Positions 3,292-18,157 of a DNA stretch of 20,641 nt are shown here, piece by piece (position 1 is the stretch's first letter; the number at the start of each line of letters is the position of its first letter). The notes beneath the pieces are model-generated. The model was given only the letters and a program-made list of their open reading frames with translations. It was not told where the DNA came from and made no database searches. Made by a program: the position numbers and the translations under genes. This DNA comes from a virus (taxonomy: Duplodnaviria; Heunggongvirae; Uroviricota; Caudoviricetes): the IMG/VR virus record IMGVR_UViG_2537562190_000023; one strand, given 5' to 3'.

Positions 3292-3653
3292 AAATAAAGG
3301 GATAACGATGATAGTTTGAGAAAAACAGAAATAACACTTTTGTGGCAAAGCATGGTGCCGGGTGCCTCCCGGTGAATTCAGTACCAGCACCTGAATCCGC
3401 GATTATCCCATATACCTGGTTGCTGATTGCCCCTCCGCACAGGGGGATTCACCATGCAGTAGTATTTTTAATAAACAGTAAACAAAAAAATCAAGCATTA
3501 TGCAGGCTGTTTCTTTTTATCACCGGCCACAGCAATACCACAATGCCGCAGACCAGCCCCCATCCGCCAGCACCGACATGATTCTGCTGGTGAAATCCAC
3601 CATCACCACCAGAAACAGCAGGAGTGCAGCCACAGCCAGGCGCAGTTTTACCG

Positions 3654-7334: not shown

Positions 7335-7490
7335 TTACTCCTCAGGTTCGTAAGCTGTGAAGACAGCGACCTCCGTCTGGCCGGTTCGGATTCGTACCTC
7401 GCAGAGGTCTTTCCTCGTTACCAGTGCCGTCACTATGACGGTTAAACAGATGACGATCAGGGCGATTAACATCGCCTTTTGCTGCTTCAT
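7335..7490 (-). CDS. hok: Hok/Gef-family type I toxin, 51 aa; an in-frame upstream extension to 7547 forms a mok-like leader ORF
   Basis: MKQQKAMLIALIVICLTVIVTALVTRKDLCEVRIRTGQTEVAVFTAYEPEE is a canonical Hok/RelF-type sequence (single TM helix, conserved Cys, acidic C-terminus). The 70-codon ORF 7335-7547 starts at ATG 7547. Confidence 0.85.
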   Translation of the reverse strand: MKQQKAMLIALIVICLTVIVTALVTRKDLCEVRIRTGQTEVAVFTAYEPEE

Positions 7491-7534
7491 AGCCTGCTTC
7501 TCCTTGACCTTTCGGTCCGTAAGAGGCAATCTAT

Positions 7535-7590
7535 ATGTGACGAGCATATAGGGGCCTCACTTCGATTTATAGTCGGGTGGGGCTTTTATC
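7535..7590 (+). ncRNA. Predicted Sok-like antisense RNA overlapping the mok translation-initiation region
   Basis: Plus-strand TTGACC at 7504-7509 could serve as a -35. A possible terminator hairpin (CCUCAC/GUGGGG with one G-U pair, 7556-7582) is followed by CUUUUAUC. The region is antisense to the mok start at 7547. Boundaries are approximate. Confidence 0.3.
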
Positions 7591-7792
7591 TATCTGCCGT
7601 TGGTGTTCATGCCCGAGGCAGATAGCCTCAAGCACCCGCAGCAATTCTACTTAACTCTGCCGTTACAGCAAGCCGTTTTCGTCCGATATGGGAATTCCCA
7701 TATCGGAATGAATTCAGTTCACCTGGCGAGGCTTAGCGTACAATTTTTTCCGTTTTGTGAGCTGCCCCTACATGCCGCTGGCGCGGCATCCG

Positions 7793-7828: not shown

Positions 7829-8587
7829 TCAAGTGCCTTTCCTGGTCCAGCCATATTTTTTGAATGCAGGCGCCGCTTCATCGGTTTGTAGCCATTCTGC
7901 AAATCGACGGGTTTCATCATTTGCATCCTGACGTACTGTAATGTTCATATCACGCCATATCACGTAGTCTGGCGCTATTTCCACGACATCACCAATTTCT
8001 GGATTACTGGCTGCCCAGTCAGCCCAGGTTATCCAGACATCTGCTTCAGGCTGATTCTCAAGAGCCTTACGTGCAGTTCCGCTATTGGGCGCATATAAAA
8101 TAATATTTTTTCGGATTGCGGCGACAGTTTCTATATTCCCTTTACGTCCGGCAATATCTTCCCAGACGCCAGTGCCTGATGTATTACTGGTACCACCACC
8201 ATCATTAACAATTACGCCAATCCCGGGTCTGGTCAGGTCGTCAATACTCCGGATATTTTTAGGATTACCTTTCTTTACCAGTAAAATACTTTTTCGCAGA
8301 TAAAGAGGCTGAATATCTTTTTCACTGAAGCTGTCTTTATGGTCCCGAATGATAGCCAGAGCAGATTGTTCTGATGCGCCAAACAAGATATCTGCATTTT
8401 TTTTGGCATCTTCATTCCATTTGTTCTGTGGGCCGTAATGAACGTTCACTATAATACCTGTTTTTTCGGCATAAAGTTTGGCTGCATCAAGCAAGGCTGT
8501 ATGCGGGCCACCAGGACCATACAGATTGATATCAGCATAAGCAGCAGAAGACAGGAATATTAAAAAACCTGCCATTATGTTCCTCAT
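7829..8587 (-). CDS. Periplasmic substrate-binding protein of the ModA/AcfC-like family, with signal peptide; orphan (no permease or ATPase partner in the window)
   Basis: 252 aa. N-terminal signal peptide MRNIMAGFLIFLSSAAYA. Sequence pattern fits ModA/TupA/AcfC-type binding proteins as recalled. Strong SD AAAAGGAG. The flanks are visibly AT-rich. Confidence 0.7.
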   Translation of the reverse strand: MRNIMAGFLIFLSSAAYADINLYGPGGPHTALLDAAKLYAEKTGIIVNVHYGPQNKWNEDAKKNADILFGASEQSALAIIRDHKDSFSEKDIQPLYLRKSILLVKKGNPKNIRSIDDLTRPGIGVIVNDGGGTSNTSGTGVWEDIAGRKGNIETVAAIRKNIILYAPNSGTARKALENQPEADVWITWADWAASNPEIGDVVEIAPDYVIWRDMNITVRQDANDETRRFAEWLQTDEAAPAFKKYGWTRKGT

Positions 8588-12530: not shown

Positions 12531-12938
12531 ATGAAAAACGAAACCTTCGGTGCTCGCCTCTTACATAGGCGTAAAAAATTAAAACTGTCTCAGGCCGCAT
12601 TAGGTAAGCTGGTCAAAGTGGCTCACGTAACAATTTCTCAATGGGAAAGAGATGAAACACAGCCGGCGGGGAAAAGATTATTCGCACTGAGCCAAGCGCT
12701 TCAGTGCTCACCGACTTGGCTTCTTTTTGGGGATGAAGATAAACAACCAGGCGAACCGATCCCGAATAATCAGCCAGCCATTCTGACAGAAGATCAAAAA
12801 GAGTTACTTCAACTGTTCGACGCACTGCCTGACTCAGAGCAAAAGGCCCTGTTGTCAGAGATGCGTGCTCGAGTTGAAAATTTCAACAAACTTTTTGAAG
12901 AACTACTTAAAGCTCGCAAAAGAAGCGCAAACAAATAA
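12531..12938 (+). CDS. Prophage repressor, XRE-family HTH, 135 aa, no S24 peptidase domain (cI functional analogue)
   Basis: N-terminal HTH (LKLSQAALGKLVKVAHVTISQWERDETQP). Divergent from the Cro-like gene. Flanked on both sides by the same operator motif. Too short to carry a LexA-like autocleavage domain. Confidence 0.75.
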   Translation: MKNETFGARLLHRRKKLKLSQAALGKLVKVAHVTISQWERDETQPAGKRLFALSQALQCSPTWLLFGDEDKQPGEPIPNNQPAILTEDQKELLQLFDALPDSEQKALLSEMRARVENFNKLFEELLKARKRSANK

Positions 12939-13454: not shown

Positions 13455-13694
13455 ATGCATAAACGAGAACCCGTCATCATCGCGCCAGACTATACCGATG
13501 ATGAACTTTATGAGTGGATGCGCCAGAAAATTAATGCAGCGCAGGATCTGAAATGGGCCAATGAAGCCAGGGCTAAGCAGGCTGAAAAATCTGTCCGCTC
13601 TGGAGCAGGATATCACCAATTTGGAAAAAGCAGCGGCATTAAGCATTGCCAGAATGATTACATACCCGCGTTAATAGCTAACCAACGAGGATAA
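13455..13694 (+). CDS. Hypothetical early protein, 79 aa as read; possible frameshift near 13585
   Basis: Strong SD GAGGAA 5 nt upstream of the ATG. The N-terminal 45 residues look protein-like. After an A5 run the +1 frame encodes a more helical-looking tail (LSALEQDITNLEKAAALSIARMITYPR). Confidence 0.5.
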   Translation: MHKREPVIIAPDYTDDELYEWMRQKINAAQDLKWANEARAKQAEKSVRSGAGYHQFGKSSGIKHCQNDYIPALIANQRG

Positions 13695-13724: not shown

Positions 13725-13762
13725 AGGTGGAGTGCGTGCGCCGGACACGGGTGAGCATCCGG
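13725..13762 (+). terminator. Candidate plus-strand intrinsic terminator closing the first early-gene block
   Basis: Bulged hairpin CGTGCGCCGGA / TCCGGCACG (13725-13756) followed by TTCTTT. Confidence 0.4.
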
Positions 13763-13809
13763 CACGTTCTTTAAAAATCTGGATAGTCCCAACTTATTTA
13801 AACGGTTAA

Positions 13810-14154
13810 TTATCTTGAGTTCATCCAGAACTTATTATTGCAAGCGGGGCAAAAAGTACGAAAATGAGCATCAAAGCGCATTATTTCCATTGGTTGCAGT
13901 ACAGATATTACCTTTTTTCCAAAACATTGTGGGCAAAGATGCACTGTTATCTCGGTATCGCCTATAAATTGCTTCTTGGAATACACAAGAGTTCCAGAAT
14001 CAAGCTTGTTAAGTTTGTAACCTTCCGCCTGTTGCTGAAAGTCTTCTATCTCTGCAATTTTTGCTTTGAGAGATGCGGCTTCTTCCTGATAAGAGCGCAC
14101 CATCTCAATGAGCGATACGCATTCAAACTGAACAGACGTAAGTTTTGAAAGCAT
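13810..14154 (-). CDS. Antisense-oriented zinc-ribbon protein, 114 aa (coiled-coil N-terminus, CPQC-x22-CPAC)
   Basis: Protein-like composition with a predicted coiled coil (EEAASLKAKIAEIEDFQQQAEGY) and a C4 zinc ribbon. Lies on the strand opposite to the surrounding early operon, in an AT-rich stretch. No obvious SD before the ATG at 14154. Confidence 0.55.
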   Translation of the reverse strand: MLSKLTSVQFECVSLIEMVRSYQEEAASLKAKIAEIEDFQQQAEGYKLNKLDSGTLVYSKKQFIGDTEITVHLCPQCFGKKVISVLQPMEIMRFDAHFRTFCPACNNKFWMNSR

Positions 14155-14280
14155 ATCGCTGACAGCGGAATTTATCTCAGTTTGAGTTTTGCATTCAGAA
14201 TACCCTTTGCCATTACCGCAGTTTCTTTGATTGCCGACATTGCTGCTGAGAACTCAACTATCACGTTACATACTCTTCTC

Positions 14281-14324
14281 GTTGTTGGGGATATCCAGAT
14301 TATACAAATTTCTTGTTGTTGGGG
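14281..14324 (-). promoter_or_regulatory. Candidate promoter for the zinc-ribbon gene, flanked by a 10-bp direct repeat
   Basis: Minus-strand perfect -10 TATAAT (plus 14299-14304). Exact direct repeats GTTGTTGGGG at 14281-14290 and 14315-14324, one on each side of the -10. Confidence 0.35.
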
Positions 14325-14806
14325 AATAACAGGAACCACCTCGCCTGACGTGGTTAAAAGCAGGCACACAACGCGAAAGCGTACGGCGAGGTAGCTGGTT
14401 CATAGATAGCCTGTCGTTAAATTTTCGTCGACCGTGCGCTTCCGGTTGTGGCAGTCCGCGAAATGGCGCGGCGGTAAGTATGGCTGGGGTTTCCTCCATT
14501 GCTCCAGAAAATGCACCGGGTTGTCAGGTTGACCATACGCTTAAGTGACAACCCCGCTACAACGCCCTCTGTTATCAATTTTCTGGTGACATTTGGCGGT
14601 ATCAGTTTTACTCCGTGACTGCTCTGCCGCCCTTTTTAAAGTGAATTTTGTGATGCGGTGAATGCGGCTAAGCGCACGCGGAACAGTTAAAACCAAAAAC
14701 AGTGTTATGGGTGGATTCTCTGTATCCGGCGTTAATTGTTAACTGGTTAACGTCACCTGGAGGCACCAGGCACTGCATCACAAAATTCATTGTTGAGGAC
14801 GCGATA

Positions 14807-14995
14807 ATGGAAACGTTATTACCAAACGTTAATACGTCTGAAGGTTGTTTTGATATTGGAGTTCTGCTCAGTAACCGGGAGTTTACTGAAGATGCCATTA
14901 AGATGAGAAAATATGAACCTTATCTTCTTAATGATAATTCCATACTTTCCAGAATTGCCCTTCTTGAACTTGGTATTATCGGAGAACAGCAGTGA
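14807..14995 (+). CDS. Hypothetical protein, 62 aa
   Basis: ATG at 14807 with SD GAGGA 7 nt upstream. The six-frame ORF starts at an upstream GTG. Confidence 0.4.
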   Translation: METLLPNVNTSEGCFDIGVLLSNREFTEDAIKMRKYEPYLLNDNSILSRIALLELGIIGEQQ

Positions 14996-15272: not shown

Positions 15273-16874
15273 ATGAACGCTGATAAAGAAGAAATTGCAC
15301 TATATTACGAAGCCAAAAATGACAAAGTCAGAAAACGCCTTGGGATTAAAGGTGGTTTTTACTGGCGCACAGCAAAAAAATTATCGGTTGCAATATCACG
15401 TGGTGTTGCTGCAATGGACGATGCCGGATTTGACGAAGAGGATTTTAAAAAACCCATCCGCGTCCATTTACCCGTTGTGAATGACCTTCCACCGGAAGGT
15501 GTGTTTGATACTGAATTCTGCAACCGATACGAAAAAGGCGGAGAAGATGGTATCACAATGATACTTATCGCGCCCTCTGTTCCGGACAAACCAGCCAGTA
15601 CTGACAATACCAACGTCAACGGCGAAGACATGGCTAAGATTGAGGAGAATATGCTTCTTCCGGTTTCAGGTCAGATTCTGCCTGTTCGCTGGCTGGCGCA
15701 ACACAACAGCGAAAAACCGCTCACGCACGTTTCACTGGACAAACTGCGCGCATTACATAACGCACAGGATGAAAAACTTCCCGCCGTTACCGCGCTGGCC
15801 ATCTCAAATAAAGCAGTGCAACTCGAACCGCTGGAGCTTCGGGATTTGTACAAACTGGTGCGAGACACTGACAAAGTTTTCCCCGCCCCCGTAAATTCGG
15901 ACCTGGGACTGATGACCTCTTTTATCGAAGCATACCTGGGCGCTGACTACACCGATCGCGGTCTGCTTACAAAAGAGTGGATGAAAGGAAATCGTGTTTC
16001 ACGCATCAGCCGCACGCCATCCGGCGCTAACGCTGGCGGCGGCATTCTTACCGATCGCGGCGAAGGTTTTGTCCACGATGATGCGTCAGTGGCGCGTGAC
16101 GTAGCCACTGGCGTACTGGCCCGTTCAATGGACGTGGATATTTATAACCTTCATCCCGCGCACGCTAAACGCATTGAGGAAATTATCGCTGAAAATAAAC
16201 CGCCATTTTCTGTGTTTTTCAGCAAATTCATCACCATGCCGGGCCACAAGGATTACTCCCGCGCCATCGTGGTTGCGTCCGTGAAAGAAGCACCAATTGG
16301 TATAGAGGCTACTCCCCACCGTGTCACCGAATACCTGAATAAGGTGCTGACTGAAACCGATCATGCCACCCCTGATCCGGAAATCGTGGATATTGCCTGT
16401 GGTCGCTCCTCTGCCCCGATGCCGCAGCGTGTAACAAAAGAAGGAAAACAGGATGATGAAGAAAAACCGCAGCCATCTGGCGCAATGGCAGATGAACAGG
16501 CAACGACTGAAGCAGTGGAACCGGATACAACTGAACATAATCAGGACACGCAGTCGATGGATGCTCAGCCACAGATAAATTCTGTTGATGCGAAATATCA
16601 GAAACTGCGTGCAGAACTCCATGAAGCCAAGAAAAACATTCCACCCAAAAATCCTGTCGATGCAGATAAATTACTGGCTGCTTCTCGAGGAGAATTTGTT
16701 GAAGGGATTAGCGACCCGAATGATCCAAAATGGGTGAAGGGGATCCAGAGTCGCGATGATGATGACCAGAATCAGGATAAAGCGGAACAAAACAGCCCAA
16801 ATGCGTTACAAAACGAGCCAAAAACAAAACAACCTGAACCGCCCCGGGTTTCCTGGAGAGTGTTTTATCTGTGA
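15273..16874 (+). pseudogene. RecE-like protein, N-terminal fragment truncated by IS629 insertion (last 13 codons and stop are IS-derived)
   Basis: ATG at 15273 with SD GAGG. Long stretches resemble the N-terminal region of Rac RecE as recalled (for example [80 protein letters not shown]). The frame enters the IS at 16835 and stops at 16872-16874. Confidence 0.8.
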
Positions 16875-16876
16875 AC

Positions 16877-17764
16877 TCAGGCTGCCAGATCATCGTTTCC
16901 GATGGAAGCATAATAAGCTTTTTCTGCTTCTGCCGGGGGAGTATGGCCCAGCCTTTCCAGCAATCGTCGATTGTTATACCAGTCCACCCACGTGAGTGTG
17001 GCCAGTTCCACTTCTGCACGGTTTTTCCAGCTCTTACGGTGTATTACCTCCGCTTTGTAAAGACCATTGATGCTCTCCGCCATCGCGTTGTCATACGAGT
17101 CGCCAGTACTCCCTGTTGATGCCAGTAATCCGGCTTCCTTAAGCCGCTGCGTGTAGGCCAGCGATACATACTGAGAACCTTTATCACTGTGATGGATTGT
17201 GCCGGACGGCCGACGGGCCCACAACGCCTGCTCCAGTGCATCCAGCACGAATGTTGTTTCCATGGATGATGAGACCTGCCATCCCACGATGTATCCGGCG
17301 AACACATCAATGATGAACGCCACATAAACGAAGCCCTGCCATGTGCTTACCCAGGTAAAATCAGCCACCCACAACTGGTCTGGACGTTCTGCCACGAACT
17401 GACGGTTTACGCGGTCGCATGCGGCAACGGCTTTCCGGCTGACGGTAGTGCGGACCTTTTTACCCCGGAGAACACCGGCAAGTCCCATAACCGCCATGAG
17501 ACGTGCCACAGTGCATCTGGCCACTCTGATACCTTCCCGTAACAACTGACGCCAGACTTTACGCACACCGTATACCTTGTGATTTTCATCGTATACGCGC
17601 TGTATCTCTTTCTTCAGCCAGTCATCGCGCTGCGCACGGGCACTGCGTTTATCCGGATAATGTCGCTGTTGCTGACAGTGGTAATACGTTGACGGGGCAA
17701 TATGCAGTTCGCTGCATACCGGTCCGACCCCGTACTGCTCACGCAGCTTATCCAGCAGTGGCAT
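16877..17764 (-). CDS. IS629 transposase OrfB (DDE catalytic domain)
   Basis: 295 aa beginning [29 protein letters not shown] and ending ASIGNDDLAA, matching IS629 OrfB as recalled. ATG overlaps the orfA stop (TAATG). Confidence 0.9.
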   Translation of the reverse strand: MPLLDKLREQYGVGPVCSELHIAPSTYYHCQQQRHYPDKRSARAQRDDWLKKEIQRVYDENHKVYGVRKVWRQLLREGIRVARCTVARLMAVMGLAGVLRGKKVRTTVSRKAVAACDRVNRQFVAERPDQLWVADFTWVSTWQGFVYVAFIIDVFAGYIVGWQVSSSMETTFVLDALEQALWARRPSGTIHHSDKGSQYVSLAYTQRLKEAGLLASTGSTGDSYDNAMAESINGLYKAEVIHRKSWKNRAEVELATLTWVDWYNNRRLLERLGHTPPAEAEKAYYASIGNDDLAA

Positions 17765-18090
17765 TATTTTTTCCAGAGGCGGTCGAACTCCGCCTTCGCA
17801 AAATAAGCGGAAGCCTGGCGAAGGATATCGTTACTGCGGCGCAGTTCACGATTTTCACGTTCCAGCTCTTTCAGACGCTGACGTTCAGCGGTGGTGAGTC
17901 CACCATCACCACTCCCGGTATCCCGCTCATGCTGGCGAACCCAGACACGCAGAGTCTCCGGCGTACAGCCAATCTTTGGGGCAATGGAACAAATTGCCGC
18001 CCACTGTGAGTCATATTCATCCTGACTTTCCAGAACCATACGAATCGCCCGCTGACGGACTTCGGGGGAAAAACGAGTATTTTTAGTCAT
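17764..18090 (-). CDS. IS629 transposase OrfA (HTH / leucine-zipper part)
   Basis: 108 aa [59 protein letters not shown]..., matching IS629 OrfA as recalled. An A6 run sits at the orfA/orfB junction, where IS3-family -1 frameshifting occurs. Confidence 0.9.
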
Positions 18091-18157
18091 CCTGTTTACC
18101 TCTTTCTCAGGGAGTTTAGTCTCCAGGATTTCCGGGGCGGTTCAACCTGAACCAGTA

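Follow-up and report, generated by a model that had tools for sequence, protein, structure and literature searches.

Two groups of described systems are close to the locus examined here. The first is ring interacting pore 1 (Rip1), a family described in 2026. According to a review (PMC13434031) of Patel et al. (Nature 651:1060, 2026), prophages encode Rip1 as a single protein that does no harm by itself; late in infection, it is switched on when small terminase or portal of a phage forms oligomeric rings. In the same account, 12 Rip1 copies encircle an 11-mer terminase ring via their C-terminal halves, while the N-terminal amphipathic helices form a pore, disrupt the membrane and abort the infection. 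The second system is the sieB-esc-sas module of phages P22 and lambda (Ranade and Poteete 1993, consulted via reviews and the P22 GenBank annotation), in which, as a review has it for P22, sas switches translation from SieB to a truncated inhibitor, Esc. Here, we compare both with a 20,641-nucleotide stretch of Caudoviricetes DNA (IMG/VR record IMGVR_UViG_2537562190_000023; "the window" below, meaning the whole stretch), and in particular with an open reading frame (ORF) of 114 amino acids on its minus strand. In our view, the window probably carries an accessory ("moron") cassette of a Qin/DicB-type lambdoid prophage that contains a Rip1-family gene, the copy in the window being inactivated and decaying. 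Judged by its homologues, the 114-residue ORF is the surviving C-terminal three quarters of such a gene. It is a member, divergent and decayed, of a family that was characterised in 2026, and not the uncharacterised factor that a first-pass annotation of the same sequence had thought possible. The parts of the split gene are as follows.

13810-14154, minus strand: residual ORF of 114 amino acids, equal to residues 38-151 of the intact protein; hypothetical protein WP_001399959.1 of the Prokaryotic Genome Annotation Pipeline (PGAP).
14172-14264, minus strand: detached N-terminal fragment, with a GTG start at 14264, 25 native codons (MIVEFSAAMSAIKETAVMAKGILNA), 5 out-of-frame codons and a TAA stop at 14174-14172.
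14190-14192, minus strand: frameshift site, where GCC has become GC by loss of one C (intact AAT GCC AAA ACT, window AATGCAAAACT).

The assignment to the Rip1 family is carried by profile, structural and positional evidence. The profile phrog_1244 matches the 114-residue ORF with an E value of 3.5e-38 over profile positions 39-147 of 157, leaving positions 1-38 uncovered; the protein repaired at the frameshift matches it at 2.3e-48, Rip1 of phage HK446 at 2.2e-53, HkaP of phage HK620 at 7.9e-51 and gp30 of the Pseudomonas aeruginosa phage JBD30 at 2.7e-61, each of these four covering nearly the whole profile. In the PDB, the 114-residue ORF alone finds chain 9oox_L, ring interacting pore 1 (E 4.9e-6, query 2-109 on residues 49-155), from an entry titled as phage HK446 Rip1 in complex with the T6 small terminase, and a profile of 41 full-length homologues finds the same chain with an E value of 2.4e-17 over positions 6-148 of 157. 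By BLASTP, the repaired protein is 23% identical to Rip1 (E 7e-11), while tblastn matches the genes of JBD30, DMS3 and MP42 at E 3e-9. The closest match among the lambdoid HK phages is HkaP of HK620 (also in HK629 and HK630), with 30% identity and an E value of 6e-13; it is a member of the same family, lies antisense in the PL operon and is annotated only as a "putative superinfection exclusion protein".

The predicted fold leads to the same family. Namely, an AlphaFold2 model was made from the intact allele P0002, which is 99% identical to the repaired window protein and whose first 40 residues, an over-extended gene call, come out disordered. Numbered as in the repaired protein, the model consists of a helix (1-23), a hinge (24-27) that is the site of the frameshift, a long helix (28-80) and then a beta-rich domain of about 67 residues bearing four cysteines, in which the predicted local distance difference test (pLDDT) is about 90. 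A Foldseek search of the PDB with this model gave significant matches only to 9oox_L and 9oox_M, with a probability of 1.0, an E value of 2e-6 and a template-modelling (TM) score of up to 0.65. What is more, the four cysteines and Q46, L66, Y83, Y95, L123 and Q124 do not vary among the Rip1 proteins of HK446, HK620, JBD30 and the window's subfamily. The window gene thus shares with Rip1 of the HK446 gp37 (PDB 9oox) and JBD30 gp30 type the phrog_1244 membership with full-length homology, a similar length, the plan of helix plus four cysteines seen in the cryo-EM structure, the invariant Cys, Gln, Tyr and Leu positions, and its nature as a prophage accessory gene encoded on the strand opposite to its neighbours. 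JBD30 gp30, for its part, is antisense, with a "DNA binding protein" gene on one side and the gene of the large terminase on the other, a position that fits, without proving, the statement of the review (PMC13434031) that the genes of the small and the large terminase flank the Pseudomonas Rip1. General domain collections are less informative: Pfam and NCBIfam searches with the ORF gave nothing above threshold, only sub-threshold zinc-ribbon noise, and PADLOC-DB 2.0 (2023), which is older than Rip1, gave zero matches. In practical terms, the assignment supplies a probable function and a name for the hypothetical protein WP_001399959.1 and for intact relatives such as WP_000559912.1 (GB089).

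The fold also bears on the suggestion, made in the first-pass annotation, of a DksA/TraR-type protein with a coiled coil and a zinc finger that would bind RNA polymerase and modulate transcription. That annotation had correctly seen a helix followed by a four-cysteine domain, as both the P0002 model and the window sequence bear out, and a long helix leading into a four-cysteine motif does give the two proteins the same general look. The likeness ends there, in sequence, spacing and fold alike. The spacing is in fact CPQC-x24-CPAC and not x22 as had been read, against an x17 quoted in the same annotation for DksA; the cysteine domain is beta-rich, some 67 residues long and C-terminal to a single long helix; the DksA/TraR zinc-finger family gives no Pfam match even at E values up to 10; and among the 50 fold matches listed there is no DksA or TraR entry, Rip1 alone being significant. 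These results contradict the idea of a DksA/TraR-type regulator, which we consider extremely improbable.

Let us turn to the damage to the gene. Homologues are 151-175 residues long, and their first 37 codons lie outside the 114-residue ORF, upstream of its ATG. In the window, the missing N-terminus is encoded at 14264-14192 in a frame that differs from that of the ORF owing to a 1-bp deletion: in the alignment, the intact alleles of Ecol_545 and RM13745 have AATGCCAAAACT in place of the window's AATGCAAAACT. Restoring the lost base yields a protein of 151 residues; as the window stands, translation from the GTG at 14264 stops after 30 codons. The deletion follows codon 25, at the hinge that joins the first two predicted helices, and the ORF retains most of the long helix and the beta-rich sensor domain. 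In other words, the N-terminal helical segment and the sensor domain, which are found in one polypeptide in intact alleles, are found apart in the window. The choice of start codon is supported by the intact homologues P0002 and P0010, whose N-termini are identical to the window fragment, by GTG being the first codon in most of the 26 aligned start regions, and by the conserved N-terminus of the homologues, MIAE(L/F)SAAMxAIKETA.... Recoding across the deletion was considered by eye: no canonical slippery heptamer is present at the site, only a run of four A.

How widespread are the gene and its broken form? Homologues occur in Kluyvera, Citrobacter, Enterobacter, Salmonella, Klebsiella, Edwardsiella and others, and such conservation across many Enterobacterales, which the first-pass annotation had set out as worth checking, means that the ORF is not a product of chance. 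The cassette is carried by about 131 of 5426 complete Escherichia coli genomes. The window's N-terminal allele is present in 29 of the complete E. coli genomes, with the deletion in 17 and without it in 12, and the serotyped carriers of the frameshift allele are mostly O103, O45 or O121. Since the deletion is present in 17 separate complete assemblies, we take it for a real allele and not a sequencing error. We read the window copy as an inactivated, decaying allele, whose loss of function is suggested by the disrupted frame, and the genomes with the broken copy, those labelled O103, O45 and O121 among them, may have lost this layer of phage defence. At best, a sensor-only fragment might be made by reinitiation at the ATG at 14154, which lies 17 nucleotides past the stop and lacks a good ribosome-binding site.

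A related observation is that the two halves of the protein recombine independently, as seen when P0003, P0004, P0010 and P0013 are compared with the window gene. Some alleles join the window's first 75 residues to a different C-terminal domain; others join the window's last 86 residues to a different N-terminal half. Such independent exchange fits a two-module design, effector plus sensor.

The control region of the gene consists of the following elements.

14299-14304, minus strand: -10 hexamer TATAAT of a sieB-type promoter, in alignment with the sieB promoter and RNA start annotated in P22.
About 14292-14291, minus strand: predicted transcription start, giving a 5' untranslated region (UTR) of about 28 nucleotides.
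14273-14280, minus strand: putative Shine-Dalgarno sequence GAGAAGAG, ending 8 nucleotides before the GTG at 14264.
14276-14291, unstranded: first copy of the direct repeat, promoter-proximal; it overlaps the predicted +1 and reads TTCTCGTTGTTGGGGA on the plus strand.
14310-14325, unstranded: second copy of the direct repeat; it overlaps the -35 region and reads TTCTTGTTGTTGGGGA on the plus strand.
14262-14382, plus strand: sas-like region, which covers in antisense the promoter, 5' UTR and start codon of the Rip1-like gene; ends inferred from P22.
13776-13793, unstranded: 3'-flank arm of an inverted repeat, complementary at 16 of 18 positions to its partner at 14284-14301.

Across the window, at least 20 enterobacterial loci, HK446 and HK620, conservation is higher in the roughly 110 nucleotides before the start codon than in the proteins themselves. 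The HK446 module matches, at 87-89%, the DNA in front of sieB in lambda, P22 and relatives; in the P22 record, the matched DNA is annotated with the sieB promoter and an RNA start site; and the TATAAT of the window aligns with the P22 -10. The first-pass annotation had claimed for the ORF a promoter of its own, with a perfect minus-strand TATAAT between exact 10-bp direct repeats. The hexamer (14304-14299) and the repeats are both present, and the homology to the mapped P22 sieB promoter supports the claim; the promoter lies about 35 nucleotides upstream of the true GTG start at 14264 and not about 145 nucleotides from the ATG at 14154. In fact, the exact GTTGTTGGGG copies at 14281-14290 and 14315-14324 belong to longer, 16-nucleotide repeats, TTCT(C/T)GTTGTTGGGGA, and the pair, spaced by 33-34 nucleotides, is also found in P22 sieB, HK446, HK620 and enterobacterial loci. 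In P22, it surrounds the -10 as in the window, in the same orientation antisense to the early-left operon, and its downstream copy begins at the mapped transcription start. Judging by this distribution, the direct repeats are an old feature of the sieB-type module. All in all, the first-pass annotation was right about the existence of the ORF, the hexamer and the repeats and wrong in treating the ORF as a complete gene; there is indeed a conserved antisense accessory gene with a promoter, of which the ORF is a truncated remnant.

The homology extends to the antisense strand. Namely, the sequence published for P22 sas (PMC13397905) reads as the reverse complement of the promoter module, and it matches the plus strand of the window at 14308-14368 (82% over 62 nucleotides, E 5e-11), this being its only significant match in the window. 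That said, RNAalifold on 23 sas-like sequences gave -5.15 kcal/mol with one compensatory pair and no convincing conserved structure; Rfam holds no sas family, and its only match near the cassette is DicF. Simple scans detected no promoter driving sas, whether in the window region or in P22; sas RNA may be processed from the early-left transcript.

Given such a control region, one could suspect a SieB-type superinfection-exclusion protein behind it, the promoter and sas module being homologous to those of P22 sieB, and in the HK446 copy also to those of lambda, and HK620 hkaP owing its exclusion-protein annotation to its position. At the protein level, this is contradicted: the repaired protein has no similarity to P22 SieB (best BLASTP E value 1.2), the protein family matched is Rip1, and the regulatory module alone is common to sieB. 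That the gene encodes a SieB protein therefore strikes us as hardly credible. The first-pass annotation had likewise called the protein not SieB-like, and rightly so, but its remark on the lack of membrane segments overlooks that the Rip1 pore is, according to the review (PMC13434031), formed by N-terminal amphipathic helices, the very part cut off here. Its guess at an exclusion function fits the Rip1 family. What we have, then, is a single module that precedes unrelated effectors, SieB in P22 and lambda and Rip1 in HK446, HK620 and the window. In our judgement, the more interesting residue of this comparison is regulatory: the sieB/sas module common to unrelated abortive-infection effectors, together with the inverted repeat that brackets the gene.

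This inverted repeat links the promoter core (AATCTGGATATCCCC) with a site 0-46 nucleotides past the stop codon, where a conserved (G/T)TTAAAGAGC comes after the 3' arm. It is kept in about 15 of 21 enterobacterial loci, across genera (those listed with it are L007, L009, L010, L017, L018, L020, L023, L025-L027 and L030), and was not found in HK446, HK620 or P22. In this respect, the window's subfamily, whose gene the repeat brackets, differs from the Rip1 genes of HK446 and HK620.

How would intact relatives work? They encode proteins of 151-175 residues with an N-terminal helical part and a C-terminal four-cysteine domain, and by homology to the HK446 and Pseudomonas Rip1, a lysogen would be expected to express such a protein from the sieB-type promoter. 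The protein should be harmless until an infecting phage assembles rings of small terminase or portal; its C-terminal domains would then bind round the ring, the N-terminal helices would assemble a membrane pore, and the cell would die before progeny are complete, i.e. the infection would be abortive. If the Rip1 mechanism carries over to the window, the frameshift would have removed the effector part and left the sensor part in place. As for control, we put forward, tentatively and as the less likely side of the question, the idea that Rip1-family genes of lambdoid prophages are wired to a P22-type sieB promoter and sas switch, which would give them a portable self-immunity control. Under such control, early-left transcription of the phage would yield a sas-like RNA over the Rip1 start codon and leader, shutting off Rip1 translation, and the phage would thereby be spared killing by its own terminase and portal rings. 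The module could carry unrelated abortive-infection effectors, be it SieB or Rip1; the enterobacterial 5'/3' inverted repeat could be part of the RNA switch; and the truncated allele of the window could mimic Esc. Whatever the details, a control module that is better conserved than the protein and common to the unrelated sieB makes the avoidance of self-killing by Rip1-carrying phages a testable matter.

The comparison with Esc raises the question of whether the 114-residue fragment is itself functional. On such an account, a sensor-only Rip1 would be made from the internal ATG and bind terminase or portal rings without forming a pore, acting as an antidote or dominant-negative like P22 Esc, or as a packaging inhibitor. 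Its C-terminal domain is undamaged and does not differ from the domain of intact alleles, the cassette uses the very type of module that in P22 gives both full-length SieB and the truncated inhibitor Esc, and the short distance of 17 nucleotides from the upstream stop to the ATG at 14154 makes reinitiation conceivable. One could add that the fragment allele has been retained in 17 complete genomes, but with serotyped carriers drawn mostly from O103, O45 and O121, shared descent could explain this persistence. Moreover, Met38 is not conserved, other family members having L, V or Q there, which means that the internal start is not a family feature; no Shine-Dalgarno sequence precedes the ATG; and the prophage is decaying elsewhere too, its ydfC being frameshifted and its exonuclease gene interrupted by an insertion sequence (IS). 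We regard a functional fragment as improbable and prefer to see the window copy as a decaying Rip1-family allele.

Several points do weigh against this preferred interpretation. PGAP calls the 114-residue ORF an ordinary coding sequence and not a pseudogene, and the persistence of the frameshift allele in the 17 genomes means that the fragment may retain some residual function. The window's subfamily is only 23-25% identical to characterised Rip1, such that trigger specificity, and even pore formation, are extrapolated. Likewise, the N-terminal segment is only mildly amphipathic in a simple hydrophobic-moment scan, a weakly informative measure. Finally, a simple sigma-70 scan did not call the minus-strand promoter, which it missed because the -35 is poor.

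The position of the gene can be described through the limits of the cassette and of the hairpin beside it.

13766-14369, unstranded: accessory cassette of about 600 bp that holds the Rip1-like gene together with its promoter and the sas-like module; its right edge is not sharp, at about 14353-14369.
13728-13773, plus strand: hairpin 3' of ydfC, core stem 13740-13745 with 13758-13763.

In an alignment with phage Tritos and three cassette-bearing E. coli genomes, the cassette replaces about 26-43 nucleotides of an empty ydfC-dicF site, and some phage matches cover the flanks only and have no cassette. The empty site of Tritos (L005, about 1525-1570) does not correspond to a clean removal of the cassette: 26-43 nucleotides there are absent from the window, including GGATATTTCC, which resembles the inverted-repeat core GGATATCC. 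In GB089 and Ecol_545, the gene occupies the same ydfC-dicF slot in the same antisense orientation; in RM13745, it lies beside dicB, the ydfC side being disrupted by an IS; and in Enterobacter and Edwardsiella prophages, the homologue is antisense and adjoins a cI-like repressor. Rip1 genes are thus found in different slots, between ydfC and dicF of a DicA/DicB-type prophage here, between N and cIII in HK446 and beside the large terminase gene in JBD30. HK446 rip1 and HK620 hkaP, which are antisense between N and cIII, hold the position of P22 sieB, which adjoins the N/gene 24 antiterminator gene. The positional argument of the first-pass annotation, which had recognised the neighbourhood where lambdoid phages carry exclusion genes, was therefore sound, and the ydfC-dicF gap of DicB-type prophages can be added as another landing site for defence cargo. 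The AT-rich character that had been noted for the stretch around the gene is real (GC fraction 0.41, against 0.49 for the window). A plus-strand terminator proposed at its border is not borne out: the hairpin core 13740-13763 has -18.4 kcal/mol and z = -1.07 against shuffles, which is unremarkable, and a terminator scan of the window did not call it. The hairpin predates the cassette, being present in phage Tritos, which has no cassette and no T-run after the hairpin; its GTTCTTTAAAAA tail is supplied by the cassette.

The window as a whole is an E. coli lambdoid prophage of the Qin/DicB type; except for a 1.3-kb IS insertion, it shares 99.96-100% identity with a prophage of the O103:H2 strain 12009. 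The Rip1-like gene is flanked by ydfC and DicF; the following neighbours are all on the opposite strand.

12531-12938, plus strand: DicA-like repressor gene.
ydfA, then the frameshifted ydfC (13455-13674), plus strand: the ydfC frameshift is as annotated in the identical O103:H2 12009 prophage.
14581-14632, plus strand: DicF small RNA (Rfam RF00039, 77 bits, E 9e-16), which is context and lies outside the cassette.
14807-14995, plus strand: dicB, followed by ydfD on the plus strand.

A restart of plus-strand genes had been placed at 14807 by the first-pass annotation; dicB does start there, but it is not the first plus-strand feature after the cassette, as DicF comes before it. The cassette lies about 210 nucleotides upstream of DicF. 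In K-12, DicF is processed from a longer transcript, and the cassette would sit inside the corresponding one. The frameshift in ydfC is a further sign of prophage decay. The insertion of about 1.3 kb relative to strain 12009, at 16841-18142, splits a RecE-like exonuclease gene, whose ORF stops at 16874, and holds an ALIL pseudoknot (17693-17809, minus strand, 120 bits), a frameshift element of the IS3 family. Elsewhere, the prophage carries a hokD/sok type I toxin-antitoxin locus at 7335-7637 on the minus strand (sok 104 bits), a match to the STnc100 small RNA at 3317-3483 on the minus strand (102 bits) and the paa adhesin gene at about 7829-8587.

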